Positions 31,781-50,640 of a stretch of DNA of 64,000 bases are shown in pieces. Source of the DNA: Thermodesulfobacteriota bacterium (lineage in GTDB: Bacteria; Desulfobacterota; BSN033; UBA1163). The stretch's first letter is position 1; each line of letters starts with the position of its first letter. The stretch covers positions 25,120 to 89,119 of the forward strand of contig JBEKWN010000001.1 in assembly GCA_049513055.1 (NCBI GenBank), given 5' to 3'. The position numbers were made by a program, and so were the translations under genes. The notes under the pieces were generated by a model. It did not search any database. It was not told the DNA's origin and saw only the letters and a list, made by a program, of their open reading frames with translations.

Positions 31781-31804
31781 GCGCTATGCTCTATGCCCTC
31801 TGCG
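31781..31804. repeat. GC-rich 9-bp-periodic short repeat element (GCGCTATGC/TCTATGCCC units), copy 1
   Basis: gcgctatgctctatgccctctgcg in 37-bp gap between the two big cytochrome genes. Confidence 0.6.
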
Positions 31805-31807
31805 TTT

Positions 31808-33799
31808 TTATTTAGTTACAATGTGGCAGTCCTCACAGGATCTTCCCGCAAACGGAGGATGAACGACATCTTTGAAGAACTTCGGATCTTTTGAAGCATG
31901 GGGATCATGGCAATTCCTGCAATTCATGACCGAAGCTTCAATACCGATGTGGGCTTTGTCAAACGTGGCCTTCTTATAATCGTGGCATTCCCCGCAGAGC
32001 GGTTGAATCCGCTGATTCAGTAGGATCGGCTCTGCTGAAAAATGAGGCTTGTGGCACCTCTCGCAGTCTCTTGAGGCTGGTTGATGGGCTTTCTCTTTTT
32101 CCATCCTTACCTTCAGGTCTTTATGGCAAGTGAGACAGAGATCAGGGCTCTTTGCTAAAAGGAGCTTGTCTAATTTTGTCTTGTGAGGACTGTGGCACTT
32201 TGTGCATTCCCCATCGACAACTGGTAAGTGTTTGCTTTTGGCTGTGCCAATCTCTTTGCTCAAATCCGGATGGCAGGATAAACAGAGGGGCCCCTGTTTA
32301 TCGACAATCATCCCTTTCACATTGCTTGCATGAGCATTATGACAGGTGAGGCATTCCCCTTCTGCAAAAGGGTTATGGTTCGTGCCGTTCGTCTCCGCTT
32401 TCATGAGATCACCATGACACGAGGCACACATTTTTGCACCCACAAATCTCAGTATATTCTTCTCATTGGACCCGTGGGAACTATGGCAGGCATCACACTT
32501 AGCGTCCATCACTGGACGATGTGTGTAAGTTTTCAAAAACTTCGCTTCTGCATCCGTATGGCATGCATAACAAACCCGGTCCATCCTTTCCTTGATGATG
32601 TTTTTCATATTCGAGCCATGGGGATTATGGCATGAGTTGCATTCTCCCTCAGAAAAAGGAGGATGAGGCACTTTAGGTTTTACCTCTTTCGTTTTCGTAT
32701 GGCAGGAAAAGCAGAGCTCTTCATTCTTCATGTTCAAAAGATTCTTGTTCTTGGCTGCATGGGGTGGATGGCAGGAAAGGCATCCCTTCGCACTGGTCAC
32801 GGGAGTATGCTTAAATCCCACTTTCTCGCTCTGCTCTTTATGACAATCGAAACAGAGATCATTCATCTTTTTCAGTTCAAGCTTCAGATACTCGGAAGTG
32901 TGTGGGTTGTGGCATGTTAAACACTCCCCTTCTTTAAAGGGGCTATGTTCCACAGTGCCGCCAACTTTCAACTTTGAAGCATCGTGACAATTGTAGCAGA
33001 GCTTACTCCCTGTTTCAGTAGTGCCAAAAGGTTTTGGATCCGAAGCTGGCTTATGGCATGCATCACATTGAGCCAAGACAACAGGGTCATGAGCACTCGT
33101 TTTCAGGAGTTTTGCTTGCAATGAAGAATGTGGATTATGGCAGACGGAACAGATGGCTTGATTCACGGGATAATTGGCGTGAGCTTTTCTAAAGGATGGC
33201 TTGCTGATGTCATGACAGCCAAGACAGAGAGGAGTCTCTGCCTTCACCAAAAGGTCTTTTTGGTCAGAACTGTGGGAGAAATGGCACGTTGTACAACCTT
33301 TTGTCCCCACTTTATGGGCTACCTTCTTTTCATAACCCTCCTTTTTGTGACATTGATAGCAAGCTTCATTACCCTCTGCTTTCAACAAGTGACTGGATTG
33401 AGAAGCATGAGGATTATGGCACTGAATGCATTTTCCTCTTTTTAACGCCGTATGCACATTGGCTTTATTCATCCCAATCTTTTCTTTGCTATGGCATGGA
33501 TAGCAGATTTCATTTCCCTCTTTCTTAAGAAGCAGCTTGGGCACTAAGCCGTGCCGGAGATGGCAATCTTCGCATTTTCTCTCCTTCACTACTACGTGAA
33601 CATCTTTCATTCCCAGATACTTCTCAACAAACTTCTTGTGGCAGTCGAGGCATTCCCTACGGGCAAATTTCTTTCCCGAAGTTGGAGCACCTCCTAACGT
33701 CCTCGTCGCCGGTGCTTGGGCACAGGCATAGAGGATGGCTCCAATCATGATGAGAAAGATGACGAACAGAATGGCTTTGTGCTCTTTTAAGAAAGACAT
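31808..33799 (-). CDS. Multiheme c-type cytochrome, 26 CxxCH motifs, probable lipoprotein/secreted
   Basis: 26 CxxCH counted; regular doubled-CxxCH repeats; N-terminal signal ending AILYAC. Confidence 0.85.
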   Translation of the reverse strand: MSFLKEHKAILFVIFLIMIGAILYACAQAPATRTLGGAPTSGKKFARRECLDCHKKFVEKYLGMKDVHVVVKERKCEDCHLRHGLVPKLLLKKEGNEICYPCHSKEKIGMNKANVHTALKRGKCIQCHNPHASQSSHLLKAEGNEACYQCHKKEGYEKKVAHKVGTKGCTTCHFSHSSDQKDLLVKAETPLCLGCHDISKPSFRKAHANYPVNQAICSVCHNPHSSLQAKLLKTSAHDPVVLAQCDACHKPASDPKPFGTTETGSKLCYNCHDASKLKVGGTVEHSPFKEGECLTCHNPHTSEYLKLELKKMNDLCFDCHKEQSEKVGFKHTPVTSAKGCLSCHPPHAAKNKNLLNMKNEELCFSCHTKTKEVKPKVPHPPFSEGECNSCHNPHGSNMKNIIKERMDRVCYACHTDAEAKFLKTYTHRPVMDAKCDACHSSHGSNEKNILRFVGAKMCASCHGDLMKAETNGTNHNPFAEGECLTCHNAHASNVKGMIVDKQGPLCLSCHPDLSKEIGTAKSKHLPVVDGECTKCHSPHKTKLDKLLLAKSPDLCLTCHKDLKVRMEKEKAHQPASRDCERCHKPHFSAEPILLNQRIQPLCGECHDYKKATFDKAHIGIEASVMNCRNCHDPHASKDPKFFKDVVHPPFAGRSCEDCHIVTK

Positions 33800-33820
33800 A
33801 TATTCACCCTTTTAAACCAG

Positions 33821-33844
33821 GCATAGTGCAGAGCGCATAGGGGA
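33821..33844. repeat. Repeat element copy 2 (GCATAGTGC/GCAGAGCGC units)
   Basis: gcatagtgcagagcgcataggggg just upstream of the 26-heme cytochrome start. Confidence 0.6.
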
Positions 33845-33864
33845 TAGAGTAATTAGCTTTGCCA

Positions 33865-35514
33865 TTAATAGGTCAGGTAAACCTTCACATCCGAAACAGC
33901 TCTCAGTTTCTCTGCCCACTCCTCCACGGCTTTTTTAAGCTTATCATCAAAGACTATTCCGGCAATTTTCTTCTTTGCCTCCTCAAAGGGCTGAGGTTTC
34001 GCAGGAATCACATCCTGTATGGCCAGCGCATAGAAATAACCTTCAACACTTTCATATAACCTAAAATCACCAGGTCTTACCCCTGAAATAGATTTACGAA
34101 CTCCTTCAGGTAAATCTTTCGTAGTGAGAAATTTCCCTTCAAAGTTCAAGATGTCTTTACTATTACTCTTATCGATTTGGCCTTCTGCATTTTCCGTCAG
34201 CCACTGAAAGTCCGTACCTTTCCTGAGTTTCTCGAGCGCCGTTTCGGCAAACTCTCTTTTTGCAAAGACGAGGCTGTTGATCTTCATCATTTCCGGCATG
34301 GTATATTCTTTAATGTGATCATTGTAATACGTTTTAAGCTCCTCCTCCTTAAGCTCGATATCTGGGACGACCACTTTTTGAATAAATGCCCCGAAGATCA
34401 CAGAATTCTCATATTCTTTAACCCTGTTCTTATAGGTTTCCGTTTTGTCGATTCTAAGCCTAAGGGCTTCTTTCCTGAATACCCTTTTGTGCAGCATCTC
34501 GTTTAAGGCAGGAATTTTTCTTTCATTCAAATTTTTGCTTTCTATTGCCCTTTCGACCCCATGATAAAGCTGCTGCCTGAGATTATCGGTCAATTCTCCG
34601 ACCGTGATAGGCTTTTCTCCTTGTATCTCTGCGATGACCCGTTTATCCTCAAGAAGTTTTTGGAACCCTGGTTCCTTGGCCTCAAAGTCGATGTCGTCAA
34701 AAACCTTCTTATTCAATTTCACATACTTCTTGATCAGAGCATCATTATAATTCTCTAAAACTCCTTTCTTTTTCAAAACCAGAGCTTCGCGTTTTGCCAT
34801 TTCCCTGGCCTCTTCGCTTTCAGAATACCGAATGTCTTCAACTTTTAATACGGCAAAACCGGATCCCACGGGGATGATAGGGCTCACGGAGCCCGCCTCC
34901 ATCTTAGAAACTGTTTCAGCAACCTGCGGCAACAAGTCTTTTCGGCTCAAATAGTTACTTTCTTCGCCTCCCTTTGCGGCTCCATCCGAAACGACCTTTC
35001 GGGCCACTTCATCGAAACTCTTGCCTTCCTTGATCTCCTCCTCCATCTTCTTCGCGGAATCTTCCTTTTCGAATATGACGGATTTAATCTTCCATTCTTT
35101 TGCTAACTCCTTATAAATCTTTTCAATCTCTTTTTGGTCAGCCTTCACATCTTTCAACTGCCTTTCCGCCAATAACTCCCTGAGTGTGATGCGAGAGAAT
35201 ACATCTACCATATTTTTCACTTCGGGCAACTCATCAAGGCCGATCTTTCTGGCCTCTTGGATAATGAGTTTTGTATTGATCAAGCGCCTCAACAGTTCAG
35301 ACTCCGTACCTTTTTTCCCCTCGGCAGACTTGCTCCCCTTTAAAGAAGAGACCTCCTGGTTGAACTCCTGCAGAGTAATTGGTTCATCATTAACCATGGC
35401 AACTATTTTTTTGCCTTTCATTAATGGCAATTTCTGCTCCGATGCAAATACAGTTGCTTCGATAAGCAAGAAAATAACTAAGACTATTTTTGGTATCAAA
35501 GAAAGATATTTCAT
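33865..35514 (-). CDS. SurA/PpiD-like periplasmic chaperone with parvulin-type PPIase domain(s)
   Basis: Signal peptide MKYLSLIPKIVLVIFLLIEATVFA, SurA_N-like region, rotamase-like segment (PIIPVGSGFAVLKVED); start moved to internal Met so the intergenic repeat is not translated. Confidence 0.5.
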   Translation of the reverse strand: MKYLSLIPKIVLVIFLLIEATVFASEQKLPLMKGKKIVAMVNDEPITLQEFNQEVSSLKGSKSAEGKKGTESELLRRLINTKLIIQEARKIGLDELPEVKNMVDVFSRITLRELLAERQLKDVKADQKEIEKIYKELAKEWKIKSVIFEKEDSAKKMEEEIKEGKSFDEVARKVVSDGAAKGGEESNYLSRKDLLPQVAETVSKMEAGSVSPIIPVGSGFAVLKVEDIRYSESEEAREMAKREALVLKKKGVLENYNDALIKKYVKLNKKVFDDIDFEAKEPGFQKLLEDKRVIAEIQGEKPITVGELTDNLRQQLYHGVERAIESKNLNERKIPALNEMLHKRVFRKEALRLRIDKTETYKNRVKEYENSVIFGAFIQKVVVPDIELKEEELKTYYNDHIKEYTMPEMMKINSLVFAKREFAETALEKLRKGTDFQWLTENAEGQIDKSNSKDILNFEGKFLTTKDLPEGVRKSISGVRPGDFRLYESVEGYFYALAIQDVIPAKPQPFEEAKKKIAGIVFDDKLKKAVEEWAEKLRAVSDVKVYLTY

Positions 35515-35538
35515 CTCACTCCTTTTTCTATACACCAG

Positions 35539-35561
35539 GCGCTCTGCTCTATGCCCTATGC
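35539..35561. repeat. Repeat element copy 3
   Basis: gcgctctgctctatgccctatgc. Confidence 0.6.
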
Positions 35562-35567
35562 TTTCTA

Positions 35568-36659
35568 TCACTTGGCCATCATTTTCCCTATTGACTGAAC
35601 CATCTGGGAAGCCATGGCATGGGCGGTATTGACCCTCCCCCAGTCAAAAAAGAAGACGCCATCGTCCCCCGTATTATAACTGGTGGAACTCCAGACAACC
35701 TCTCTGCTCTTCCTTTCGATCACCTCTGCGGTAAAATCAACTTTCGGTTTTCCAAAACTGCCTTGGTAATCCTGATAATCGAGCACCTGTCCAGTCACGA
35801 CAAGATCGACATTCAACATTGCAAAAATGGCACCAGCGTCAGCCAGAGAAACCCCTTGATCCATGATAATTCTCAAATTGAGAAGCTGCTGTCTCACAAT
35901 ACCTGGTTCAATCACATCGAACTGTTCGAATTCTTTCAAATGCTTGACAAAATGGAGGGATACGATCTCCGCTCCATATTTCCTCTCGCTCCTGTTGAAA
36001 AAGGGGACAACCGCCACAGTGTATTTCCTCTTCCCTTCTATCACGGGTGAACGGAAAGATATCTTTGGTCGAAATTTCCTTTTCACAGACAGCCCTTTGT
36101 TCTCCTTCTGGCCGGAAAGACTTTCTCTTAGAGAGTCTAGCAAACGGTTCAGAGCCTTTTTTTGAAGCGTCTTAGGGTCTTCGATTAAACCTAAACCAAG
36201 AATACCCGGTGAATCATCGCCGGCCAATCCCACATCGTCGATCCACAGTATGGTAGGATTATCTCCGCTGGAAACGAGCCTCAAGGTCAATGCAATTTTG
36301 GGCGGATTCGTTTCATTATAGAGTTCGAGAGAAGTGATGAGCACGGCTTGACAGTCGATCTCATCCTTGAATTCTTTTGCCGTTATCTTATCGATACCTC
36401 CGGTGTAACGAATGCGATGCTTCGCCATAAATTTCTCGAGAGCATCCTCCTGAAGCACATCGATTCCCCTTGCCTTTAAACCATCCATAAGAGCTCCTCT
36501 TATCTCTTTAAGGGGCGACGCAGTTCCACTAAGGTTCTCCATTGGCAGGACGGCAATGAGGAATCGTTCTCCCATTCCGGGAAGATTTTCTTTCGTCGCC
36601 TCTTTCCCGGTTGCGCATCCGATAAGGAAAAGAAGCCCCGCAAAGAAAACAATTGTCAT
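35568..36659 (-). CDS. Lipoprotein with two LpoB/CsgG/TolB-N-like domains
   Basis: Lipobox LFLIGC; repeated modules FLIAVLPMENLSG... and YTVAVVPFFNRSE...VDLVVTGQV; start taken at MTIVFF to avoid overlap. Confidence 0.5.
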   Translation of the reverse strand: MTIVFFAGLLFLIGCATGKEATKENLPGMGERFLIAVLPMENLSGTASPLKEIRGALMDGLKARGIDVLQEDALEKFMAKHRIRYTGGIDKITAKEFKDEIDCQAVLITSLELYNETNPPKIALTLRLVSSGDNPTILWIDDVGLAGDDSPGILGLGLIEDPKTLQKKALNRLLDSLRESLSGQKENKGLSVKRKFRPKISFRSPVIEGKRKYTVAVVPFFNRSERKYGAEIVSLHFVKHLKEFEQFDVIEPGIVRQQLLNLRIIMDQGVSLADAGAIFAMLNVDLVVTGQVLDYQDYQGSFGKPKVDFTAEVIERKSREVVWSSTSYNTGDDGVFFFDWGRVNTAHAMASQMVQSIGKMMAK

Positions 36660-36660
36660 T

Positions 36661-37233
36661 TTATTTAAAAAGCTTGTTAACGAGATCATTCACAGCCTTG
36701 TCAGTAATGTCATTCATGGGCCTGCCACCCCCACCCAAGAGGCGATCCCAGATGCTGATCCCGCCTTTCGTCGTGGACGCAGTCCATACCACCTTCCCGG
36801 TCGTCCCCTCCATCATCTGGAGACTGACGGATATAATATTTGCAGAACTGGTACCTGACCTCACCTCACCATACTCTTTAACCACCCCCGTTACAACGGC
36901 CTGGGCTTTGATAAGTCCCGACAATTTTACGACCTCTTCTTGAGAAGGAGCAGCAGGATTCTGGATCTCTGCCCTGGCAATCCCTCTTGCAACCTCGCCA
37001 ATGGGGAGTACATATACAGCACCTGTGGATAATAGCTTGTTGATAAAGACATCTCTCACCCGTTCGCCAGCAATATTATCCCTTGTAAAGTTTAGGAAAG
37101 GCATGGCGGCAATGGTCTGTATCGCCCCGAAATCCATGTTTGGATCACGGTATATATTAGTTGTGGCACAAGCTGATACAAAGACGGGAACCAAAAACAA
37201 CAGAATTTTTAATAGACTGAAAGGTTTCTTCAT
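36661..37233 (-). CDS. Lipoprotein with one LpoB/CsgG/TolB-N-like domain
   Basis: Lipobox VFVSAC; IAAMPFLNFT...AQAVVTGVVKEYGE motif resembling previous gene. Confidence 0.5.
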   Translation of the reverse strand: MKKPFSLLKILLFLVPVFVSACATTNIYRDPNMDFGAIQTIAAMPFLNFTRDNIAGERVRDVFINKLLSTGAVYVLPIGEVARGIARAEIQNPAAPSQEEVVKLSGLIKAQAVVTGVVKEYGEVRSGTSSANIISVSLQMMEGTTGKVVWTASTTKGGISIWDRLLGGGGRPMNDITDKAVNDLVNKLFK

Positions 37234-37335: not shown

Positions 37336-39507
37336 TCATAAAAATATCTTCAAATTAGCACTGAAACCGTTCGAATCCGATTTTTCCAATTTAGACGAAG
37401 TATGGATATACTGATAAGACAGGTCTAAGAAGGAACGGCTCGTTATATTCCATCTCACGCTTGGGGTTATCAGTCTGTTCTTCTGGTTATTTTCGGACAA
37501 TATGCTCTCATTATAGGAAAAATTAAATTGAAGCGTCCCTTCCGGAAAAGGTGACCAGTTGAGCCCGTAATTCTGGGTCGTCTGAATCTTCTGACCTTTT
37601 TGCGCTAATATTTCCCATGAGGTAAAGATATATAACGTTTCAAAAGGACGGTAGGCTACACTCAAGTCTCCCCTCCTTGCAGAAGTAGAAGTAGACGGCA
37701 GACCGCCACCAGATTGGTTTGTCGTTGTATCAGAGTAAATCAGAGTTATTGTCGTGGTTCTGTGGGGAACGATATTTGCGCCGAAATTGATGACGGTGTT
37801 GTTCTGCTTTTGACCTGTCTCTAAGGTCGAAAAATTGTACCCCCCACCGAGATTAATATCGATCCCTTTGTACAATGTTGCATTGTTTTGCAGAAAGATT
37901 GAATTATTCTTTGTTGATTTCCCACCAATCTCTTCTATGCGTCCACTATAGATGAGATTGTGCCGAAGGGTTGTCAACGGAGTGGCAACGATTGAGGCAT
38001 TGTATACGTAGGCCCACCTTTTCTTCCCCTCTTCAGTGCCATCTTCTCTTGCTACTCTCGCGCTCCCTGAAAAGATGGGATTAAACCTGTGATTCACTGA
38101 CAACCCGTTCGAAACAGTGTACGTGGTCTGACCAAGGTCTGTTTTGTCGAGGAAATAAGAGAACTCATAAAAAAGCGTGGGGATATCCAAAATCCTTGTT
38201 CTTGAATCGATGTTAAGAATATGGGTAAGTTTCGTGGTTCTGCCTTTCACCTGTTCCGCAGGCTTCTTTATAAATGCCTGCAACTCTGTGATGAAAATGT
38301 TTGGAAAACTTATTGCCCCGCTGACAAAATTTTGAAGGGGGAGGGTCACCACCTTTATATATCTTGTCGTTACTGGATTTATGAAGTTGATTTCAAAACG
38401 GTTTTGGAATTGTCCGGGAGAAACAGTAACGCCTAAAACTTGCGTCCAATTCAGGTTATCTGAACTTGTCCATACTTGGATATTTGAAAAAAAGAAGGTT
38501 AAAATGTTCGTTGCTGCAGAAAGGTCCCTATCAACCCACAGGAAGAGGCTGTTTACCTGTGTTGAAACCAAAAAATCGAGGCCTACCTGCCTTAGGCTCG
38601 TCGTATCTCCACCAAGAGGAGGAAGTCCAATATTGATGCCGGCGCTTGTAGTGGTATTCCCGTCAATGAGAGCTGGATTGGAATCAAGTGTTATGGGACT
38701 AGCCGTAATATTAATAATAGAAAGCCCTGCAAAAGGAGAAATTTGGGAGCTTACCGTTCCTCCTTTGCCTGTTGCAGTGGTATTGGTTTCTTCATAAGTG
38801 ATGTTGTAACTCCCGTTAAAAGAAACCCGGTTGTTAAAAAACATATCCGAGTAAGTAATTCTTCCGGTGTTCAGGTAATCTTTCGTGTCCACTCCGTTCA
38901 ATTTGTCTTTTGTATCGGTATACGTACCTTGATATCTGACATCGAGGTTCTTATACGTATATCTGGCGCTCAATAAACCATAGTCAGTGGTGGTATCCTG
39001 AATACTATGTTTTTCATCAAAGAGATTAGTTCGGGTAAGCCGCACATCGATGACCGGAAGTCCCTCGGGCCTCCAGCCTAAAATGACATTGTAGTCCTCA
39101 TTCACAGTAGTAACACCGGGGGAACCTGAAGTTTTCACTGTTTCCTGCCTTCTGTCATAACCGATTCCAGCCGTATAGAGGGGGGTGTTGAGCGTAAGGT
39201 TGATATAGGGACGCAGGTCGGTCGTATCCGATTTCGTTCTCATTCCATCAGTTTTGTCCCAGGAAATATTCTTTTCAACAACGACGCCAGCATCCAATCT
39301 CAAATTAGGAAAGATGTTTGTGTTTACCGTAAGGGTCACTCGAGGATTGAAATTATTCGTTACTGTTTTGGTAGTCACCCCCGTCGCATCTGTTGTCTTC
39401 GTAGATAAAAAATTATAGTTTAACTCTAAGAGGCCGCTTACGCCTTGAAGGAGTCCCTGTGCACTCGCCATGCCCGGTAACAACACCAAGACCAGCAAGA
39501 TAAGCAT
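37336..39507 (-). CDS. Predicted large outer-membrane beta-barrel protein (~720 aa)
   Basis: Signal peptide MLILLVLVLLPGMASA, Thr/Asn/Ser/Tyr-rich alternating amphipathic strands throughout, no TM helices; start moved from 39540 to Met at 39507. Confidence 0.45.
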   Translation of the reverse strand: MLILLVLVLLPGMASAQGLLQGVSGLLELNYNFLSTKTTDATGVTTKTVTNNFNPRVTLTVNTNIFPNLRLDAGVVVEKNISWDKTDGMRTKSDTTDLRPYINLTLNTPLYTAGIGYDRRQETVKTSGSPGVTTVNEDYNVILGWRPEGLPVIDVRLTRTNLFDEKHSIQDTTTDYGLLSARYTYKNLDVRYQGTYTDTKDKLNGVDTKDYLNTGRITYSDMFFNNRVSFNGSYNITYEETNTTATGKGGTVSSQISPFAGLSIINITASPITLDSNPALIDGNTTTSAGINIGLPPLGGDTTSLRQVGLDFLVSTQVNSLFLWVDRDLSAATNILTFFFSNIQVWTSSDNLNWTQVLGVTVSPGQFQNRFEINFINPVTTRYIKVVTLPLQNFVSGAISFPNIFITELQAFIKKPAEQVKGRTTKLTHILNIDSRTRILDIPTLFYEFSYFLDKTDLGQTTYTVSNGLSVNHRFNPIFSGSARVAREDGTEEGKKRWAYVYNASIVATPLTTLRHNLIYSGRIEEIGGKSTKNNSIFLQNNATLYKGIDINLGGGYNFSTLETGQKQNNTVINFGANIVPHRTTTITLIYSDTTTNQSGGGLPSTSTSARRGDLSVAYRPFETLYIFTSWEILAQKGQKIQTTQNYGLNWSPFPEGTLQFNFSYNESILSENNQKNRLITPSVRWNITSRSFLDLSYQYIHTSSKLEKSDSNGFSANLKIFL

Positions 39508-39508
39508 G

Positions 39509-39525
39509 GCGCATAGCGCAGAGCG
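39509..39525. repeat. Repeat element copy 4
   Basis: gcgcatagcgcagagcg immediately 5' of the chosen start of the beta-barrel gene. Confidence 0.55.
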
Positions 39526-39648
39526 TAGATCGTATTTCATCCAGAAAGCCCTTATAGCTATGTGACTTGGTAGAAAAAGTGGAATAGGATGCTTCGGATT
39601 GAACGCCTAACCAAATTTAACCGCTTTGAGTTATTCAAATTTTTCTCA

Positions 39649-39679
39649 CGCTATGCGCTAAGCGCTCTGCGCTATGCGT
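39649..39679. repeat. Repeat element copy 5
   Basis: cgctatgcgctaagcgctctgcgctatgcg abutting the stop of 39681-41099(-). Confidence 0.6.
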
Positions 39680-39680
39680 G

Positions 39681-41099
39681 TTACCGTTCTCCCATCATCG
39701 TCACCCAGTACGGGCTCTCCCCCACATCGACGATGAAAACCATCTTTTTACTGATAAGATTGGAACCCATTAAAGTTTTCATTCCAGGATTTATCATGAC
39801 AAGGTTATTCTCTTGGCCATCGATGGTCATATAGCTTATGCCTCCACCCGTATTGATAAAATCCACAGGGACGAATGAAAAAGGGTTATACGCCTCCACC
39901 ACCGTATCGTTTTTTCTCCCGAGATAGACGAGATCCGTGTTCGTTTCGACCTTTATAGACTCCATCCCCATCCTTACTTGAAACCTTCTTGCCACCGAGA
40001 GAGAAAGAGGATCTATAGCACTCACGTAAGAAGACCACTCATGAATGACATAAATTTTATCACCGTTTCTGTTAAACTGACCTCTCAAAGGACTTGGATC
40101 TGTCCCTATGGTAGCCAAAAGCATTTTGTTCGGAATATCGATAACAGAGACAGTGCTGGCCATGGTATTGAAGACATAAGCTCTCCTCCCTGTAGAATCT
40201 ATCAAGACCGAATTCGGCCCGTTTCCAACCTTGAGTCTGTTCACCTCTATTAGAGAACTGGTATCGATGAAACTCACGGTATTCGACCCTGGATTCACGG
40301 TAAGAAGAAGTCTGTTATCAGGGGTAAGGGCAAGCTCCTGAGGATGATCTCCGGTATTCAGGCGAATCCTGTCGATAACGTCTTCTGCAACCACGTCCAC
40401 AATAGCAATTGCGTCATCTCCTGAGAGTGCCACATAGCCTCTCCTCAATTTTTGGTCGAGGGCCATTCCCATGGGTTTTCTCCCGGTTGCGATGATGGCC
40501 ACGGCGAGCCCCGCCTGTTTGTCAAAAACTGTGATATTGCTGGAACCGGGGTTAGTAACGTATCCTGCAAGATTTGAAAGAGGCTTGCCAGGAATAGACA
40601 TGGAGAATACAGGACTGAAGCTGAAGCCACCTTTTATTGATTCAGGATATTTAAACCTCGCTGAAATAAGGTACGCCTTCTTTCTTGCCACATTAAATGA
40701 AAAGTCAATTTTTACCGGCTCTTCAGGAGATCGAAGGGTAGCTTCTCCCTCTTCCACTTTTAAGACAGCACTTTGAACCAGAAATGAAAGTCCACTATAT
40801 GAGCCTTGAGGCAGCCTGCCTGAAGCAAGAAGTCGCTGCCTTTTCATATCAGGGCCTTTCAACTGGTGCAGGGAAACATCAAGCGCGAATTCCCGACCAT
40901 CGCTGCTTACGGCAAAAACTTTCTCAAGGGTGAATCTGAGCCTGTCTGCCTCTTGAGGGAGAGGTTGGATATAAAGGTAGATTTCTCCTTCTTCTTCAAG
41001 GGGTGGCCTCACTGTTGAGATTGCTGCTTGGCAACCCACGATTACGAAAAGAACGCAGAGGGCATAGAGTATAGCGCATAGCGTTTTCTTAAAGGTCAT
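39681..41099 (-). CDS. YVTN-family beta-propeller lipoprotein
   Basis: Lipobox VIVGCQAA; YVTN-type repeats (GYVTNPGSSNITVFD, YVALSGDDAIAIVDV etc.). Confidence 0.6.
   Translation of the reverse strand: MTFKKTLCAILYALCVLFVIVGCQAAISTVRPPLEEEGEIYLYIQPLPQEADRLRFTLEKVFAVSSDGREFALDVSLHQLKGPDMKRQRLLASGRLPQGSYSGLSFLVQSAVLKVEEGEATLRSPEEPVKIDFSFNVARKKAYLISARFKYPESIKGGFSFSPVFSMSIPGKPLSNLAGYVTNPGSSNITVFDKQAGLAVAIIATGRKPMGMALDQKLRRGYVALSGDDAIAIVDVVAEDVIDRIRLNTGDHPQELALTPDNRLLLTVNPGSNTVSFIDTSSLIEVNRLKVGNGPNSVLIDSTGRRAYVFNTMASTVSVIDIPNKMLLATIGTDPSPLRGQFNRNGDKIYVIHEWSSYVSAIDPLSLSVARRFQVRMGMESIKVETNTDLVYLGRKNDTVVEAYNPFSFVPVDFINTGGGISYMTIDGQENNLVMINPGMKTLMGSNLISKKMVFIVDVGESPYWVTMMGER
41055..41083. repeat. Repeat element copy 6, overlapping codons of the signal peptide of 39681-41099
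   Basis: gcagagggcatagagtatagcgcatagcg. Confidence 0.55.
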
Positions 41100-41289: not shown

Positions 41290-42612
41290 TTAGTCTTTTA
41301 CGTGGCACTTGTTGCAGAGAGACCTCTGAAATGTCGCGTACATGCTCGGAGGCCTACCATACATTGCCGCCGGATACTCGGTTTTATTATATATGCTAGT
41401 TGCAGTAGCTGAGACAGGATAGGCACTACTTTCGGTAATAAATTCAAAGTCGTTGTCCCATCTGGTCATGTGGTCAAATCCGGTTGCATGCGCCCTGTGG
41501 CAGGAGAGGCACATCACGTTTTCAGATCCTCCATTTGGTCCCCCTATCACTGAGCCATCGCTCACTGCGTGCTTAGCGAGAGCTACCCGGTCCGAAGTAT
41601 GCTCCTCATAAGGCACCATTGAGGTGTATGAGTTAGCTGACGTACCGCTCAGGTCGCCCGACTTTACATACATGTTGTAGTTAGTGTATGCATCCACTAT
41701 ACTACCCTTCAACACGGCGGCGTTACTTGCCGGGTGAATCAAATTTGAACTTAAGCTATCGTTGTGAATTGCTGTATGGCAATTCGTACACCATTCTGAC
41801 ATGCCCTGACCATAAGCAACCCTGGTATCAGTGGAGGTCTCTTGCCTGTTGTACGAGCTGGGCGCCACAGCAAAAGGCGGATCGTAATTAAAGGCAGGAC
41901 CACCAGCATAAGACTTCGGCAAATAGCTTTTACCACCCAGCAGTCGGTATACACCCACGGTATCTGTTCCGGTTGGTATAGCGCCAGTAGAACCGGACCC
42001 TATAATAGGACCGGGAGTCGATCCTGCTCCGCCCCGGTATACGAGCGTACCACTGGCGTTTATTCTGGCGGATGGATGCGGATCGTGACAACTGATGCAG
42101 CTAAGGTTGTTTGCTGAGTAAGTACCGCCAGGGGCGGTGTGTAGCGTACTATCTGGTAATGCCAACCCCGAAAAATCTGTGGCGACAACGTTATGGCCGT
42201 GTCTCTCGCCGAGAACTGCTGCCGTATGCATATCACTCGTAGCGGTGTAAGTAAATGTCAGCCAAGCGAAGTCTCCACCCGGAGTATAGTTAGCAGGAAC
42301 CTGTGTCCCTTGTTTGGCGTCGCTGGTAAACACGTGGTAGCTGCTAGCACTGGCCGCCTTGCTTGCGTGGCAGAACAGACAGGTGGAACTCTGGTCAGTT
42401 CCTATGAGAAGGGACTGATTACCCGTGTATTGAGCAGCCTTCCCACTTAACCCTTTCTGTGCAGCCTTTACACCTCCAACGGAGTTGTGCATGGTATGGC
42501 ATCCATCGCATGTTGCAACGCCGCCTTCATGGAAGGCATATGCCATTCCGCTTAAACCAATAGTTACCAGGGCTGCAGCCATGATAACCAAACTTAACTT
42601 CACTGCTTTCAT
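41290..42612 (-). CDS. OmcS-family hexaheme c-type cytochrome (homolog of the Geobacter nanowire-forming cytochrome OmcS)
   Basis: Signal peptide then FHEGGVATCDGCHTMHNS; 6 CxxCH; matches OmcS across length including RVAYGQGMSEWCTNCHT, CLSCHRAHATGFD and C-terminal QRSLCNKCHVKD. Confidence 0.85.
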   Translation of the reverse strand: MKAVKLSLVIMAAALVTIGLSGMAYAFHEGGVATCDGCHTMHNSVGGVKAAQKGLSGKAAQYTGNQSLLIGTDQSSTCLFCHASKAASASSYHVFTSDAKQGTQVPANYTPGGDFAWLTFTYTATSDMHTAAVLGERHGHNVVATDFSGLALPDSTLHTAPGGTYSANNLSCISCHDPHPSARINASGTLVYRGGAGSTPGPIIGSGSTGAIPTGTDTVGVYRLLGGKSYLPKSYAGGPAFNYDPPFAVAPSSYNRQETSTDTRVAYGQGMSEWCTNCHTAIHNDSLSSNLIHPASNAAVLKGSIVDAYTNYNMYVKSGDLSGTSANSYTSMVPYEEHTSDRVALAKHAVSDGSVIGGPNGGSENVMCLSCHRAHATGFDHMTRWDNDFEFITESSAYPVSATATSIYNKTEYPAAMYGRPPSMYATFQRSLCNKCHVKD

Positions 42613-42774
42613 TTCATCCTCCTAATTAGTTTTTTGATTTTTTGTTTTTACTTTCTTTACGTTACCTTTTACTGCTTACTTATAACTATTCTTGATTGCC
42701 CTTCAACCACCTCCTCCACCATTTTCTATTTTCCCCCGCATAACAACCCCCCTATTAATCCAACTACGCAAAAC

Positions 42775-42812
42775 GCATAGGGCATAGCGCAGAGCGCAGA
42801 GCGCAGAGCGCC
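42775..42812. repeat. Repeat element copy 7 (includes GCAGAGCGC x3)
   Basis: gcatagggcatagcgcagagcgcagagcgcagagcgcc between OmcS-like gene and NHL gene. Confidence 0.6.
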
Positions 42813-42834
42813 TAGCCCTTTTTATAAAAAGGAA

Positions 42835-43806: not shown

Positions 43807-44031
43807 AACTCTTTGCTATTTCTATAGAGCAAGCCCCATGCCAAAACTCTTCGAATCGTTGCCGCAAAAACCTTTTAAAAATAGAAGAGAAAAGCTTTTA
43901 AATTCAATATATTAGATGAGGCAAAAAAAGGGGTACGAAGCTATTGATTTGTAGTCCATGTGAAAGTAGGTGCTTATTAGCGTAATATCCCGCACCTCTG
44001 TGGATTCTCCCACAATGATATTGTTAAAACC

Positions 44032-44060
44032 GCAAAGTGCAGAGCCCATGGGGCATAGCG
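44032..44060. repeat. Repeat element copy 8
   Basis: gcaaagtgcagagcccatggggcatagcg. Confidence 0.5.
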
Positions 44061-44210: not shown

Positions 44211-44238
44211 TCTATGCTCTATGCCCTATGCGCTATGA
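44211..44238. repeat. Repeat element copy 9
   Basis: tctatgctctatgccctatgcgctatga just 3' of the response-regulator gene. Confidence 0.6.
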
Positions 44239-44249
44239 GGTTCTTGGGA

Positions 44250-45626: not shown

Positions 45627-45689
45627 TGTTTACACCAAAATCCGTGACCGTGTTGCGTGTCGCGTGCCCGGACACGGAAACGATTTTTA

Positions 45690-47198
45690 TTAATTGATGG
45701 CCGGGAGGGTAATGATAAATTTCGTTCCCACATTGACCTGGCTTTCCACCTCTATCTTTCCGCCTTGTTGTTCCACGATATTTTTGGTGATGGATAAGCC
45801 CAAACCGGTCCCATCCGAACGGGTTGAGAAGAAGGGATTGAAAATCTTAGGTAAGTTTTCTCCTGTGATCCCAACACCTGTATCCTCAAAGACGATCTGG
45901 ACTTCTTGAACCTCTTTCCCATCGTCTTTCCTCTGAGGAAGTGCAACCGTCGAGACGGTGAACGTTCCACCTTTGGGCATTGCCTTCTGGGCATTGAGGA
46001 TGATATTTAAAAAGGCCTGCTCCATAGAACTTGGATCGATCATCGTCTTAGGAAGGGATGAAACAAATCTCTTTTCAATTTTAAAATCCTCCGACCTTCC
46101 GCGTTGTGTCATAAAGAAAGATAGAACTTTATCGACCAGTTGATTGATATCTATCGGCAAATAATTTTTGGGAACAGGCTTAGCAAAGTTAAGTAGATCC
46201 TTTACAAGTCGTTCCAGCTTGTAAATCTGTTTTTGAATCTCATCGGTTACTTGTGTTCGAGGATCCTCTTTGGGGAATCCCTCCGCCATGATTTGAATAG
46301 CTCCTTGAATGCCTGCCAAAGGATTCCTAATCTCATGAGCGATTCCAGAAGCCAGCTCGCCAATAGAGGCCATTCGATCAGCCCTCTGAATCAGTTCCTG
46401 ATGATATTGCTCCGCCTCTTGCTTCGCCAAATTGAGCTTCTCGATCATGATGTTGAGATTCTCAGCCAGACGTCCCATTTCATCTCTGCTCTTAACATTC
46501 ACTCTAACACTTAAATCGCCCTCTTCCGCTTTTTTCATCGTCTCGGTCAACTTCTTGATCGGGACATTGATGAATCTCAAAAAGAGGAAACCCAGTACAA
46601 AGGATAAGAATGCAATGGTAATGATGGCAAGGATAATCGAGTGGATCTGGACTTTGTAAATCATGTCGTGCATCTCTCTCATGGATTCGGCCACAACCAG
46701 TACCCCGATCACCTGGTTCTTTTTATCATGGCATTGAAAACATTCCGGTCTGTTTTGGATCGGATTGACGTAATAATAAACGGCCTCATGGACTATTTTC
46801 CCGGCATTATTCTGCAAAACCTCCTCTTTTTCAAAATATCTATTTTTCAAATAGAAGTCTACATTTTCAACTTTCTTATTTAACTCTCCTTCATAGGTGG
46901 TTGCCATGATGGTCCCATCCGGTCGGAAGACATGGATCTTCCAGATTCCTTTGTAAGTTGCGAAGTTCTGCAGGACCCGATGGATTTCAAAATGTCTTCC
47001 TTTTTCCATCGCCCGGATGACATTTTTTTCGATAAATTCCGAAACAATTTTTGCTTTCTCCTGGGTCAGTCTTTCGATACTGCCTTCGTGAAGCGCTGTA
47101 TTCCAATAGACATTAAAGGAAATGGCAAAGATCAAGATGAGACTGGTGACCAAGACGACCTTAAAGAATAAAGAGGTTTTTCTTAGGATGGACCACAT
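45690..47198 (-). CDS. Sensor histidine kinase with periplasmic sensor domain carrying a CxxCH heme-c motif
   Basis: Two TM helices flanking ~150-aa periplasmic domain containing ECFQCHD; HisKA (ELASGIAHEIRNPL) and HATPase_c motifs. Confidence 0.85.
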   Translation of the reverse strand: MWSILRKTSLFFKVVLVTSLILIFAISFNVYWNTALHEGSIERLTQEKAKIVSEFIEKNVIRAMEKGRHFEIHRVLQNFATYKGIWKIHVFRPDGTIMATTYEGELNKKVENVDFYLKNRYFEKEEVLQNNAGKIVHEAVYYYVNPIQNRPECFQCHDKKNQVIGVLVVAESMREMHDMIYKVQIHSIILAIITIAFLSFVLGFLFLRFINVPIKKLTETMKKAEEGDLSVRVNVKSRDEMGRLAENLNIMIEKLNLAKQEAEQYHQELIQRADRMASIGELASGIAHEIRNPLAGIQGAIQIMAEGFPKEDPRTQVTDEIQKQIYKLERLVKDLLNFAKPVPKNYLPIDINQLVDKVLSFFMTQRGRSEDFKIEKRFVSSLPKTMIDPSSMEQAFLNIILNAQKAMPKGGTFTVSTVALPQRKDDGKEVQEVQIVFEDTGVGITGENLPKIFNPFFSTRSDGTGLGLSITKNIVEQQGGKIEVESQVNVGTKFIITLPAIN

Positions 47199-47383
47199 CG
47201 ACTATCCCAAAAACTTAATGATTATTCAAAAATACCCAAATATAATATTTAGAAGGGATACTAACAATTTATACCTTTTTGTTCTCCAAAAATCAATAAT
47301 AGCATCCCCCGAAGTTATGTTTCGAGAAAATGCTCTAAGGTGTCGAAATTTAATAAAGTAGAGGGATATTTTGCTTTTTTGTC

Positions 47384-47677
47384 CTATGAAGAGTCTTTCG
47401 AGGAAATAATTGGACGAAGATCAGTTTTAGAAGCAGAATAAAGTTTAAAAACCTTACAAGTTTTACAATCCTTTTTGATGCCAAGCAGGATCTCACATTT
47501 CGTATAAGCAATCTCCCAACAGGGCCTGTCCCGATAGAGGTAGGCAGGGCAATCAACATAAACATATTTGGAACAATCTAAGATAATCCAGCATGGTTTT
47601 TTCCCTTCCCAAAAATCTGACAATCTTATTTCCCCCGATATGCACCCCCATTTTAGTTCAATCTCTAAGAAAAGCAA
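47384..47677 (-). CDS. Small Cys-rich hypothetical protein (8 Cys in 97 aa) upstream of the sensor kinase
   Basis: ORF only; Cys spacing CWIILDC...CPAY...CWEIAYTKC...CKTCK; no family recognised. Confidence 0.3.
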   Translation of the reverse strand: MLFLEIELKWGCISGEIRLSDFWEGKKPCWIILDCSKYVYVDCPAYLYRDRPCWEIAYTKCEILLGIKKDCKTCKVFKLYSASKTDLRPIISSKDSS

Positions 47678-47787
47678 TATAAAAGATTAACCCTTGATCT
47701 GTTGAAGATTTTTCAAGGCGATAAAGAAGTCAAAGAAAGTTTATGATGTGTAGGGAAATGAATTTTCGGAACTACGAATTAATATTT

Positions 47788-48246
47788 TTAGGGATAACTC
47801 CTTTTGTCTTCTTCAATTATTGCAGTCACTTCTCGGGTAGTACTGTACTTCCCAAAGGTCTCCCTCGCTTGCCCCTTACCCAGATAAGGCCGCTGAATTT
47901 TAATCCAGTGCTTCGAAGTCATGATGTCGGCTGCGTTGTCGAAGATAAAATAAGCTTCCTTGATCTCCTGTCCAGAAAAGAGTTTTATAGCTCTTCCTGC
48001 TCTACCTGGAATCCTATATTCTCTCGCAATGCCGCTATAAAAAGCAACGACACTCTCAAAGGGATCACTGGTCGTAAAAACGATTTCTTTTGAAGCCTTT
48101 GAGATATTACTCCCTGGCTCTGGCTGTTTTACCTCGTAAACACCGTCCACCTTGGCTCCAGGGTAAACCTGAAATGATCTCGCAGAGGCGACTACTGGCA
48201 AAGTTAGCAACATCGTAAAGGCTAAAATGCATATTCCTTTCTTCAT
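47788..48246 (-). CDS. Secreted hypothetical protein
   Basis: Signal peptide MKKGICILAFTMLLTLPVVASA; 152 aa. Confidence 0.4.
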   Translation of the reverse strand: MKKGICILAFTMLLTLPVVASARSFQVYPGAKVDGVYEVKQPEPGSNISKASKEIVFTTSDPFESVVAFYSGIAREYRIPGRAGRAIKLFSGQEIKEAYFIFDNAADIMTSKHWIKIQRPYLGKGQARETFGKYSTTREVTAIIEEDKRSYP

Positions 48247-48814
48247 CTCTAGCCTCCGTCTTATCTCTCAAGCTTATTTTGACCCGACCATGACACTTCG
48301 TCAAGACTCTAAGCTTTTTTGGCCATATGGCTTAGGAGCGTTCCCCCAGTATTGCACGGAATAAGCAATCGGGATTGCGTAAATTTACTCACTTATCTGT
48401 GGGAAATTCCATAATTTAAGGATTTTGATTTTTCTCCAAATCCTCAAAAATGAAGGAAAAGTTTGATTACCTTTAGAAATTAATGGGTTACTGTTTAGAT
48501 TTTAAATATATATTGGCTGCTGTTTAAGGTATACATTTTGCTTGTAAGATGGTGTCAAATCTTAACTGGGTGGCTCAAATCGAGGCGCTTAACCGTGATT
48601 CCTGGAAAATTTGTCAACTTCGTTGCCAGGTTAGAGAACTTTAAGAAAAAGGAATAAAGAAGGTAACCCACGATGTTGATGTATGAGGTGTTTTACAGGG
48701 ATTATAGAAACAGACAGACGGAGAAAATAGCTATATTGGTTGAAAGGAGAAGGGATCCGAGTAGACAAAATGGGTTAAAGTGGGCGAGAAGAATGTTTGA
48801 AAAAATGATCGGGG

Positions 48815-49504
48815 ATGCCCACTGTCTTTTCGTTATGCCCAGGGAGGAGAACATCAACATTGGATAAAATCGTAACGCGTTTAGTTGTTATAGTCCTTCT
48901 GTCTTTGGCTCTTAGCAGTTCTATATTTGCCACGAGTTCATCTCCGGTCATAGGTGGAAAACTTCCTATCATCAGCCTTCCAATCCCTAAAAATTCATAT
49001 GAAAAAATCTATTTAGGACTTTCAGGGGAGGGTTTTTTTAAAATTTCCCAAATCAAGGCTAAAGGTGTGCTGATTAAGATTTTTAACCTTTATTGCCCTA
49101 TCTGCCAAAGTACCGCATCAGCCATGGCGGAAATATATCATCGAATTGAAAATAATCCGGATCTCAAAAATAAAATAAAATTGATCGGTATTGGGGCAGG
49201 GAATAATCTTTTAGAAATAGAGTTCTTTAAGCAGAACTATAATATCCCCTTTCCGATCTTCCCGGATGAAAATTTTAAAATTCACCAGGCCTTAGGAGAA
49301 GTCAGAACTCCATTTTTTATCGCCCTCAAAATGGAGAAAGATGGCTCTCATGAGATTGTTCACACCCATCTGGGTGGGCTCACTAACGCAAGGGCATTTT
49401 TAGATTTAATGGTTGAGGCTTATGGAATTAAACAAGAGGATTTGCTGATAAAAGAAGCTATCTCATCACCCAAAGAGTCTCGATCAGATAATGAATTGAA
49501 ATAA
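48815..49504 (+). CDS. Thioredoxin-fold thiol-disulfide oxidoreductase (TlpA/ResA-like), membrane-anchored
   Basis: N-terminal TM anchor, CPIC active-site motif; start uncertain (ATG 48815 or TTG 48857). Confidence 0.6.
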   Translation: MPTVFSLCPGRRTSTLDKIVTRLVVIVLLSLALSSSIFATSSSPVIGGKLPIISLPIPKNSYEKIYLGLSGEGFFKISQIKAKGVLIKIFNLYCPICQSTASAMAEIYHRIENNPDLKNKIKLIGIGAGNNLLEIEFFKQNYNIPFPIFPDENFKIHQALGEVRTPFFIALKMEKDGSHEIVHTHLGGLTNARAFLDLMVEAYGIKQEDLLIKEAISSPKESRSDNELK

Positions 49505-49890
49505 TGGCCATTCGAAGGAGCGCAGGCATTCAATCTTATAAGATCTTAATCGCTGATGATGAATTTTTGATCCGGTGGTCCCTCACTCAGGCCCTATCTC
49601 AGGAGGGTTACGATGTCATTTCGGTTGAGGATGGAAGGAAGGCCGTCGAGGCCGCCCAAGCACAGCACTTTGACTTCATCATCACAGACCTGATCATGCC
49701 AGAATTGGATGGATGGAAAGTATTGGAAATGACCAGGCAGACTCAGTCTCCACCTCGGGTCATCATCATTACTGCCAGAGGAAGTGAGGATACCGGAGGG
49801 ATAGCTAAAACGAAAGGGGCCTGGGCTTATGTCGAGAAACCCTACATCATTGATAAAATCAAAGAGATTTTAAACTCCTCCACCTTTTAA
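49504..49890 (+). CDS. Single-domain response regulator (CheY-like receiver)
   Basis: ILIADDE...FIITDLIMPELDG motifs; start overlaps previous stop (ATAATGG). Confidence 0.8.
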   Translation: MAIRRSAGIQSYKILIADDEFLIRWSLTQALSQEGYDVISVEDGRKAVEAAQAQHFDFIITDLIMPELDGWKVLEMTRQTQSPPRVIIITARGSEDTGGIAKTKGAWAYVEKPYIIDKIKEILNSSTF

Positions 49891-50073
49891 CCATCTCCTC
49901 AAAATTTTCCTGTCGACGTCCACAGAAAACCTAAATCCTTACATGAGGGGTTGGAAATCATCTTCCATTTGATTAATCCGTCTGTTTAAGATAAAATTTT
50001 AAAGATAAAAGGAGAATCTTAGATGAAAAAAGAGACTGTTATCCTGATCGTTGTCATTGCATAAAAGACGGCC

Positions 50074-50574
50074 ATGGTCCAGAAACCCCAAATGGCTCCA
50101 CCAGGTGCCCCAGTACCGGCCTCTCCCGGTCGTGATTCTATTGAAGTTGCTTCTAAGATCCAAACTTTGAAGGAGATCGTCAAAAAAGACCCTAAAAACC
50201 TTCCGGCCTGGGTGGAATTAGGAAACCTTTATTTCGATACGGACCAACCCAAAGAGGCTATTGATGCTTACAGCCATTATCTTGCCGTCAAACCTGATAA
50301 CCCGGATGTCAGGACAGATATGGGGATCATGTATAGAAAATTAGGGCAATTTGATAAAGCCCTCGAAGAGTTCAGAAAGGCAGCCCAAAACGATCCAAAG
50401 CATGTCAACAGTCGATATAATATTGGCCTTGTCCTCCTTCATGACAAACAGGATATTAAGGACGCTATCAAGGCATGGGAAGAATATTTAAAAGTAGATC
50501 CTAATAGTGAAAGAGCCCAGCGAATAAGAGCCCAGATCGAGAAGATGAAAGCAATGCCTGCACCAACCAAATAA
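50074..50574 (+). CDS. TPR-repeat protein; an in-frame TAA (50062-50064) separates it from an upstream signal-anchor-like mini-ORF with strong RBS
   Basis: Three or more TPR units (AWVELGNLYFDTDQPKEAIDAY...); same frame as ATG 50023. Confidence 0.65.
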   Translation: MVQKPQMAPPGAPVPASPGRDSIEVASKIQTLKEIVKKDPKNLPAWVELGNLYFDTDQPKEAIDAYSHYLAVKPDNPDVRTDMGIMYRKLGQFDKALEEFRKAAQNDPKHVNSRYNIGLVLLHDKQDIKDAIKAWEEYLKVDPNSERAQRIRAQIEKMKAMPAPTK

Positions 50575-50610
50575 GCTGAATGCTCAAAGCTGAAAGCAAT
50601 AAAATAATAA

Positions 50611-50640
50611 CGCTATGCTCTATGCACTTTGCGCTCTGCG
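50611..50640. repeat. Repeat element copy 10
   Basis: cgctatgctctatgcactttgcgctctgcg downstream of TPR gene. Confidence 0.6.

Follow-up and report, generated by a model that had tools for sequence, protein, structure and literature searches.

We examined a 64,000-nucleotide stretch of the genome of a Thermodesulfobacteriota bacterium (contig JBEKWN010000001.1, positions 25,120 to 89,119; hereafter the window), in which a family of short repeat arrays lies at the gene boundaries of a multihaem cytochrome locus. The genes of the locus lie on the minus strand and encode, in order, a histidine kinase, an NtrC-type activator, an NHL-repeat protein, a 440-amino-acid (aa) multihaem cytochrome, a YncE-like lipoprotein, a 734-aa outer-membrane protein, two lipoproteins, a SurA-like chaperone, multihaem cytochromes of 663 and 441 aa, and a second NHL protein. 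Several metagenomes from peat and wetland contain contigs of about 100 kb with identical sequence. A scan for three consecutive CT[A/C]TGCN units, with at least 15 of the 18 specified bases matching, found exactly ten arrays in the window, against 0.22 in shuffled sequence, and found them at the places where an initial sequence-only reading had put ten repeat elements.

That reading had also taken the copies as one dispersed family in both orientations, which holds, with CTMTGCN on the plus strand in five arrays and on the minus strand in the other five. Its proposal of a 9-bp period does not. The three 9-mers on which it was built are far more frequent in the window than expected (4, 5 and 9 occurrences against 0.10, 0.52 and 0.17), but tandem matches at 42789, 42796 and 42803 are 7 nt apart, and Tandem Repeats Finder assigns a period of 7 to 7/10 arrays. 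This spacing, together with the copies read directly, identifies the period as a heptamer and excludes 9-bp periodicity; the three supposed units are overlapping windows on one heptamer array. Likewise, the threefold tandem copy reported at 42790-42812 is genuine as a tandem, a perfect (GCAGAGC)3 at 42789-42811, but not as a run of 9-bp units. The unit is the degenerate heptamer CTMTGCN (complement NGCAKAG), with five fixed and two variable positions (3 and 7), and the arrays contain three to seven units, most often four. We refer to the purine-rich (NGCAKAG)n as the R form and to the pyrimidine-rich (CUMUGCN)n as the Y form, both in the sense of the mRNA.

Followed along the transcript, the first array (44212-44239, plus strand, R form) starts about 10 nt past the stop of the NtrC-type regulator gene (44250), and its Y-form partner (44031-44058, minus strand) lies about 150 nt further downstream, upstream of the sigma-54 promoter of the NHL-repeat gene. 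The longest array, seven units of the Y form (42767-42815, minus strand), sits about 20 nt past the stop of that gene (42835). The gene for the YncE-like lipoprotein (39681-41099) carries a Y array in its signal-peptide codons (41047-41081, minus strand), where it encodes ..TLCAILYALCVLF.. ahead of the lipobox Cys, and is followed 3 nt past its stop (39681) by an R array (39651-39678, plus strand). A Y array (39503-39530, minus strand) then occupies codons 4-13 of the 734-aa outer-membrane protein (start 39540). Further along, an R array (35528-35569, plus strand) directly adjoins the 363-aa lipoprotein gene's stop (35568), with about 14 nt left to the SurA-like start, a Y array (33820-33847, minus strand) lies 18 nt past the SurA-like stop and is separated from the 663-aa cytochrome start by 21 nt, and an R array (31770-31804, plus strand) fills the gap from the stop of the 663-aa cytochrome (31808) to the ribosome-binding site (RBS) of the 441-aa cytochrome (start 31755). 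The tenth array (50613-50640, plus strand) is an outlier, 39 nt past the stop of a TPR gene (50574) and between that gene and a convergent TldD gene. R forms in the cluster accordingly adjoin the stops of the NtrC-type, YncE-like, lipoprotein and 663-aa cytochrome genes, and Y forms lie before the 663-aa cytochrome RBS, upstream of the NHL and 440-aa cytochrome genes, and in two signal peptides, one more than the single copy in signal-peptide codons first noted.

The same arrangement recurs in relatives. Using the outer-membrane protein as a probe, we recovered 24 related loci. In those at 78-94% protein identity, arrays occupy the same gaps between genes but differ in unit variant, in number of units and in the spacing of the arms, and both arms are often present where the window has a single one; four relatives (L127, L128, L129 and L132), for example, have an R arm ahead of the counterpart of the 33820-33847 Y array. 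In the window and its relatives together, R arrays (n=21) start at a median of 6 nt past a stop codon, all of them within 35 nt. Y arrays (n=26) are placed more variably: 12 fall inside the next open reading frame (ORF), in its first 45 nt, 6 precede it by 22-27 nt and 8 by 150-240 nt. A gene gap can hold R, Y, RY or RYY, never YR, and the loop between R and Y arms runs from about 10 to more than 300 nt, reaching about 490 nt in one relative. The sequence-only reading had not recognised that the copies are the two mutually complementary arms of inverted repeats, whose position relative to stop and start codons is fixed. We consider the arrays well supported in identity and anatomy as heptamer-array inverted-repeat halves at gene boundaries.

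Single arrays with their flanks fold no better than shuffled sequence (z-scores of -1.7 to +2.2), and the earlier statement that the copies form no strong hairpins is correct locally. It fails over distance: the R array at 39651-39678 is predicted to pair with the Y array at 39503-39530 in a stem of about 16-19 bp that encloses the RBS and AUG of the outer-membrane-protein gene. Both close pairs in the window (39503/39651 and 44031/44212) have the purine-rich arm first, and in close pairs the arms match unit for unit. In the gap between the YncE-like and outer-membrane-protein genes of L130, L132 and L143, both arms belong to another, octamer family (R: GGRTTCAAG-like; Y: CTYGAAYC), so that both arms have been replaced together and complementarity has been retained despite the new sequence. 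A search of the whole window against Rfam 15 gave no match at the gathering score, and at E<=1 between 29.0 and 51.5 kb it gave just two chance microRNA matches, both on a hexamer hairpin described below.

Arrays can also become protein. The Y form is stop-free in every frame if position 3 is A or C, and encodes Leu, Cys, Ala, Tyr and Met. In orthologues of the YncE-like protein, whose sequences we read by eye, the lipobox Cys follows 17-18 residues where there is no array and 22-23 where there is one, the array supplying signal-peptide residues such as LCAILYALC. The two partly array-encoded signal peptides of the window are a clear case of repeat DNA absorbed into coding sequence.

The unit is widespread. 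An exact-pattern scan with one genome per species returned at least 119 loci; the matches listed come from Nitrospirota, Desulfobacterota-type 'Deltaproteobacteria', Syntrophobacteria, Omnitrophota, Acidobacteriota and Planctomycetota, and from Saprospiraceae, Calditrichia, Kiritimatiellae, Gemmatimonadota, Clostridia and cyanobacteria, with near-perfect CTATGCC runs in Microcoleus and Nostoc. Many of the listed loci are close inverted pairs (-23 to -100 kcal/mol) whose arms agree at the variable positions too. Still among the matches listed, R precedes Y in 28/28 close pairs on either strand, 17 of 29 array-to-stop distances in unrelated genomes are 15 nt or less by hand tally, and convergent and divergent gene pairs also carry CTMTGCN hairpins. 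An independent scan of viral contigs found R then Y in 59 of 62 close pairs and Y then R in 3, which makes the pooled figure, with the genome part again from the listed matches, purine-first in 87/90. These genomes and the phage contigs span 42-68% G+C. Arrays are dense in Mu-like phage contigs from IMG/VR (L188, L190 and L211; 67-68% G+C), which encode Mu Gp36, Mu portal, Mu F and capsid proteins and have a CTMTGCG-array hairpin between most genes; one such contig has 16 arrays in 14 kb. Dense hairpins in such compact genomes argue that the arrays are tolerated or useful. In these contigs, the longest downstream ORFs begin within the 3' arm.

Elsewhere the arrays have little to do with cytochromes. 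Their neighbours include genes for thiolase, GTP cyclohydrolase, seryl-tRNA synthetase, glycogen phosphorylase and other housekeeping functions, and only one of about ten loci examined, L046, is a cytochrome locus (a Rieske/cytochrome b/multihaem operon). All the others adjoin housekeeping genes, and we rejected a cytochrome link in other genomes.

Within the cytochrome locus of the window, all the regulatory signals that we recognised fall outside the arrays. A sigma-54 -24/-12 element (TGGCATGGGGCTTGCT, 43828-43843, minus strand) lies 22 nt upstream of the NHL start, and a perfect palindrome (TGTGGATTCTCCCACA, TGTGG-N6-CCACA, 43999-44014) lies about 155 bp upstream of that promoter; both are conserved in relatives and, judged by sequence, are probably the promoter and the enhancer of the adjacent NtrC-type activator. 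A sigma-70-like promoter, TTGACA-17-GATATT (37329-37301, minus strand), lies upstream of the LpoB-like lipoprotein gene, and a canonical terminator lies at 41245-41216. The TTGACA-17-GATATT site is conserved in most of the 78-94% relatives, and the gap that holds it is the sole longer gap of the cluster without an array in the window and its close relatives. We therefore rejected the arrays as sigma-54 or sigma-70 promoters or as terminators, since no T-run follows the arms either, and as the activator's enhancer, for which the palindrome is the better fit.

In the window, the arrays are sharply concentrated. All ten lie within 31.7-50.6 kb, with none at 1-31.7 kb or 50.7-64 kb; in terms of intergenic DNA, there are 10 arrays in 2993 bp inside the cluster against 0 in 4889 bp outside it. 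The adjoining contig sequence, surveyed for 10 kb and 6.5 kb beyond the two ends of the window, is likewise free of arrays. With both the remainder of the window and its flanks empty, the concentration first noted at the cytochrome locus, with no copies in the first 30 kb, is real over the 80.5 kb surveyed, with all ten arrays inside 19 kb. Two segments, 31781-31804 and 41058-41081, are inverted copies with 23/24 identical positions 9.3 kb apart, which suggests local spread between neighbouring gaps. The concentration may thus reflect spread among adjacent gene gaps in this Thermodesulfobacteriota lineage, a suggestion that explains the clustering only in part.

Such clustering is what one would expect if the arrays were locus-specific sites for a trans-acting factor that co-regulates the cytochrome and outer-membrane genes. 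Besides the ten arrays in 19 kb, this idea is favoured by the adjoining histidine kinase/NtrC-type pair with its conserved sigma-54 element, by the resemblance of tandem units with five fixed positions to the sites of multimeric proteins, and by the UAG or GAG that recurs every 7 nt in the R form. Candidate factors would be the NtrC-type sigma-54 activator itself, a nucleoid protein of the kind guessed at in Geobacter, or an oligomeric, HutP-like RNA-binding protein reading (U/G)AG once per heptamer. The last rests on a likeness between the 7-nt triplet spacing of the R form and (NAG-spacer)n sites of the HutP/TRAP type, in which three or more UAG or GAG triplets recur at a fixed spacing and are read by a ring-shaped RNA-binding protein. 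Against a dedicated factor, arrays elsewhere flank housekeeping and phage structural genes, orthologous loci at 45% identity do without them, and the TGTGG-N6-CCACA palindrome makes a better activator site. Most arrays, moreover, lie inside transcription units rather than upstream of promoters, and a direct-repeat binding site has no need of complementary arms. We think co-regulation of this kind, by any of these candidates, quite unlikely. The functional tie to cytochromes that the sequence-only reading implied is undercut by the housekeeping and phage neighbours and by the lack of arrays at the most distant of the orthologous cytochrome loci. For annotation of the locus, the arrays carry no specific information on cytochrome regulation.

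The related loci also show how the arrays change. The metagenome contig L004, from an otherwise near-identical strain, has two rather than three GCAGAGC units at 42789-42811, a variant that indicates change by gain or loss of whole units. In the comparison with relatives, proposed as a check on the locus, the same gaps hold arrays at 78-94% identity, and most orthologous loci at 45-50% identity have none. Three at 45% (L138, L139 and L141) have tight gene junctions without arrays, and one at 50% (L144) has two arrays. The arm loops of some relatives hold additional DNA. An 809-nt insert in L132 (8449-9261) contains small ORFs whose products look, by eye, like a GIY-YIG nuclease and a four-helix-bundle protein, and the translation of a 963-nt insert in L125 (3067-4072) looks TPR-like by eye. 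A GC-rich palindrome, CCCTCACCC..CTCTCCCC..GGGGAGAG..GGGTGAGGG, recurs in arm loops, and inserts or palindromes of this sort lie in the YncE-outer-membrane-protein gap of L127, L128 and L133 and in the gap between the SurA-like and 663-aa cytochrome genes of L132.

[quoted passage not shown] Inverted arms of a single fixed polarity, the near-identical inverted copies at 31781-31804 and 41058-41081, presence, absence and a switch of family within one gap among relatives, loops with inserted genes and the GC-rich palindrome, and the occurrence of arrays in phages would all suit such an element, as would the insertion sequences at a fixed distance from similar sites in Geobacter metallireducens (PMC2700814). 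However, we found neither target-site duplications nor any conserved core between the arms, nearly every copy differs in unit number and order where a copy-and-paste element would not, and no transposase is among the called genes of the 80.5 kb surveyed. The loop between the YncE-like and outer-membrane-protein genes, moreover, contains the resident RBS and start codon. A MITE proper, with near-identical copies, terminal inverted repeats and target-site duplications, we rejected; mobile-element ends in the wider sense we judge very unlikely.

The reading that we favour, with about even confidence, is that the arrays are generic gene-boundary hairpin elements, maintained at the level of DNA and serving as transcript punctuation, with no cytochrome-specific code. 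On this account, arrays would be generated and kept alike by slippage of units and by copying from arm to arm. In a transcript, the R arm stands a few bases past the upstream stop, followed by the loop and then by the Y arm, ahead of the next gene or within its opening codons, and the paired arms could act as gene-boundary punctuation, as stems that delimit, stabilise or couple neighbouring cistrons. The punctuation function taken by itself we back only tentatively, at well below even. The symmetry of the polarity on both strands, the proximity to stop codons and the density in phages suggest that transcription or translation shapes where and how arrays are tolerated or used.

Several observations weigh against this reading. 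Several gaps have just one arm. In the window, the pairing of R and Y arms is about equally strong in every combination (-28 to -58 kcal/mol) and is not best between neighbours, which led us to reject partner-specific pairing there. In stems between co-directional genes, the mismatches comprise 14 sense G.U, 14 antisense G.U and 49 transversions, as expected at random, and the wobble pattern of an RNA helix under selection is absent. In 79 pairs, the 3' arm is not followed by a T-run (T fraction 0.16-0.35 against a background of 0.20); we rejected intrinsic (Rho-independent) termination, which calls for a GC-rich hairpin and then a T-run, and the one canonical terminator of the locus is not an array. 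Among the relatives compared, conservation of the arrays does not exceed that of other intergenic DNA. The arms in L133 and L134 bracket a gap with a terminator and presumably a promoter, and hence need not share one transcript. Finally, ten arrays in 19 kb of 80.5 kb is a clustering for which generic punctuation alone does not account. Random mismatches, the lack of a T-run and the bracketing in L133 and L134 together argue for a DNA-level process that makes and equalises the arms, and against base-by-base selection on an RNA stem.

The same evidence could mean that the arrays have no function at all and are by-products, slippage-prone simple-sequence repeats and quasi-palindromes that persist where they do no harm, in gene gaps and the cores of signal peptides. 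Strain variation in unit number, conservation no higher than that of other intergenic DNA, the random mismatch spectrum and the distant orthologous loci that work without arrays would all follow, and a study in Xanthomonas found no regulatory role for comparable repeats (PMC4692102). Neutral slippage, though, does not predict purine-first polarity in 87/90 close pairs or starts 3-18 nt past stop codons. Nor does it easily accommodate the retention of arrays in the same gaps across the 78-94% relatives, or one heptamer across genomes of 42-68% G+C that is also dense in compact Mu-like phages. We consider functionless by-products an unlikely explanation.

A more specific role for the stems would be as long-range mRNA structures that couple translation, a terminating ribosome melting the R arm and so freeing the Y arm over the next initiation region. 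The predicted stem around the RBS and AUG of the outer-membrane-protein gene would be such a structure, R arms lie 3-6 nt from stops, 12/26 Y arms reach into the opening 45 nt of the ORF that follows, and the longest downstream ORFs in the phages begin within the Y arm. Coupling is hard to reconcile with the 8 Y arms, one of which is upstream of the promoter, that lie 150-240 nt upstream of the next start, with the many single-arm gaps, with the absence of partner specificity and of a wobble bias, and with the hairpins at convergent and divergent gene pairs. We rate it very unlikely, on a par with mobile-element ends.

Arrays of other units also occur in and around the window. An octamer-array inverted pair (TTGGAATA and its complement) at 30330-30405 (-31 kcal/mol) lies between the 441-aa cytochrome and NHL genes. 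This hairpin falls in the first 30 or so codons (roughly 7-31) of the longest NHL ORF (29437-30423), and the true NHL start is probably downstream of it. A second array of the TTGGAATA family (63912-63947) has its inverted partner just past the end of the window, in a 2-oxoacid dehydrogenase operon between the genes for E1-beta and E2. A hexamer-array hairpin (AGGTTA/AACCTT; 50836-50890, -27.8 kcal/mol) lies directly past the TldD stop. Other purine-rich heptamer runs, (GCTGAAA)n and (GGCGTAA)n, adjoin CTMTGCN arrays in L128, L133, L144 and L129 and in the window at 50590-50612, an indication that the lineage carries several unit families.

When we considered tandem arrays of any unit of 6-10 nt that have an inverted counterpart, most had a period of 7, and the purine-rich arm was 5' in 35/35 CTMTGCN pairs and in 24/27 pairs of other unit families. 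We rejected a rule of 'stop codons first' as the cause of this polarity, which fits the CTMTGCN family (23 versus 3) but not the others (8 versus 13). A broader version of our reading would hold that there is a gene-boundary module common to bacteria and phages, made of a few recurrent heptamers with the purine arm always 5' on both strands and read or made by one conserved machinery with a 7-nt register, which could be a factor in transcription or RNA processing or else a mobile-element enzyme not yet recognised. So general a module seems to us unlikely. In the CTATGCN version of the unit, the 5' arm has UAG and the 3' arm AUG in all three reading frames, which means that a pair could act as a frame-independent stop-hairpin-start cassette. 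If so, it could also seed new signal peptides.

Three further observations concern the window rather than the arrays. The 440-aa cytochrome (41290-42612) is only 44-61% identical in relatives, against mostly 82-94% for the flanking genes; its sequence is compatible with either fast evolution or replacement. In the TPR gene (50074-50574), the window lacks at 50062/50063 a segment of 60 bp that contigs L001-L004 have; the loss creates a stop, removes the N-terminal membrane anchor (..VVIAFLVGFIAGATVAILKG..) of a 203-aa, CcmH/CycH-like TPR protein and leaves an ORF of 166 aa, and may be either a strain variant or an assembly error. Positions 1-4000, which hold RND efflux genes, have 55-56% G+C, compared with 40-48% (mostly 43-47%) elsewhere in the window.

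Known repeats in comparable places include the REPs of Escherichia coli, other enterobacteria and pseudomonads and the bacterial interspersed mosaic elements (BIMEs) that contain them, which are extragenic, lie between the genes of an operon or after its last gene, and are often a few bases from stop codons. A REP is itself palindromic, if imperfectly so, has a conserved head of the GTAG type and comes with a cognate transposase. The CTMTGCN arrays resemble REPs and BIMEs in being extragenic, in forming inverted pairs and RNA stem-loops and in varying between strains. They differ in that a single array is made of tandem units and is not palindromic, and we rejected a REP/BIME identity because the arrays lack the self-folding imperfect palindrome (z-scores of -1.7 to +2.2, as above). 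No REP-associated tyrosine transposase is among the called genes of the 80.5 kb surveyed. REPs are not known from phage genomes, whereas CTMTGCN arrays are dense in Mu-like phage contigs.

A much closer parallel is provided by the GGGAATC, or (GGGANTN)n, heptamers of Xanthomonas, which have five fixed and two variable positions, a mode of four units, and an intergenic location in about 90% of cases, at a mean distance of 28 nt from the ORF upstream, whose stop they closely approach or overlap, and of 160 nt from the one that follows (Rehm et al., 2015; PMC4692102). Each genome has 70-75 convergent pairs with the purine-rich arm first, repeat length varies between related species although the single or paired type is kept, and the repeats coincide with transcript starts or ends more often than controls do, though no function was found (PMC4692102). 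Our arrays share the exact 7-nt tandem unit, the five-plus-two pattern, the mode of four, the location near the upstream stop and the purine-first pairs. They differ in host phylum and in a unit without G-runs, and hence without quadruplex potential; their arms are often far apart and some lie in coding starts. The Xanthomonas repeats are chromosome-wide, in contrast to the copies that we see in one 19-kb locus of the 80.5 kb.

Closer in phylogeny are the paired 'putative global regulator binding sites' (classes 1-3) of G. metallireducens, which consist of three to five tandem units, each 7-9 nt long, lie on opposite strands at variable distance and have insertion sequences nearby, and for which binding by IHF or HU was a guess by the authors (Aklujkar et al., 2009; PMC2700814). 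The host belongs to the same broad lineage (Desulfobacterota/Thermodesulfobacteriota), and both sets have three to five units, opposite-strand pairs at variable distance, a place in gaps within operons and mobile DNA close by; the consensus sequences there, GTTGCTYN, TCTCCGTS and MTYCTGA, differ from CTMTGCN. Tandem heptamer arrays of unexplained function also fill gene gaps in cyanobacteria, as short tandemly repeated repetitive (STRR) sequences, and in Beggiatoaceae, as TAACTGA, the latter just upstream of start codons and with a single inverted pair reported (PMC4679880). They are like ours in being gap-dwelling heptamers, many per genome and common to distant phyla, but are mostly long, near-perfect direct repeats, whereas CTMTGCN arrays are short, degenerate and arranged in inverted pairs. 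Heptameric repeats are, according to the account of Mrázek (2007) given in PMC4679880, the commonest long simple-sequence repeats in many prokaryotic genomes.

What this locus adds is a compact natural series, in which the same gaps of relatives hold a different unit, number or spacing, another family, or nothing; together with the purine-first polarity and the density in Mu-like phages, it makes questions on the origin of such repeats and on operon punctuation testable. The searchable literature holds nothing relevant on the CTMTGCN unit, including its dimer sequences. With three precedents for the architecture and none for the unit, we conclude that the arrays are a functionally unexplained but known kind of repeat, built here from a new heptamer.

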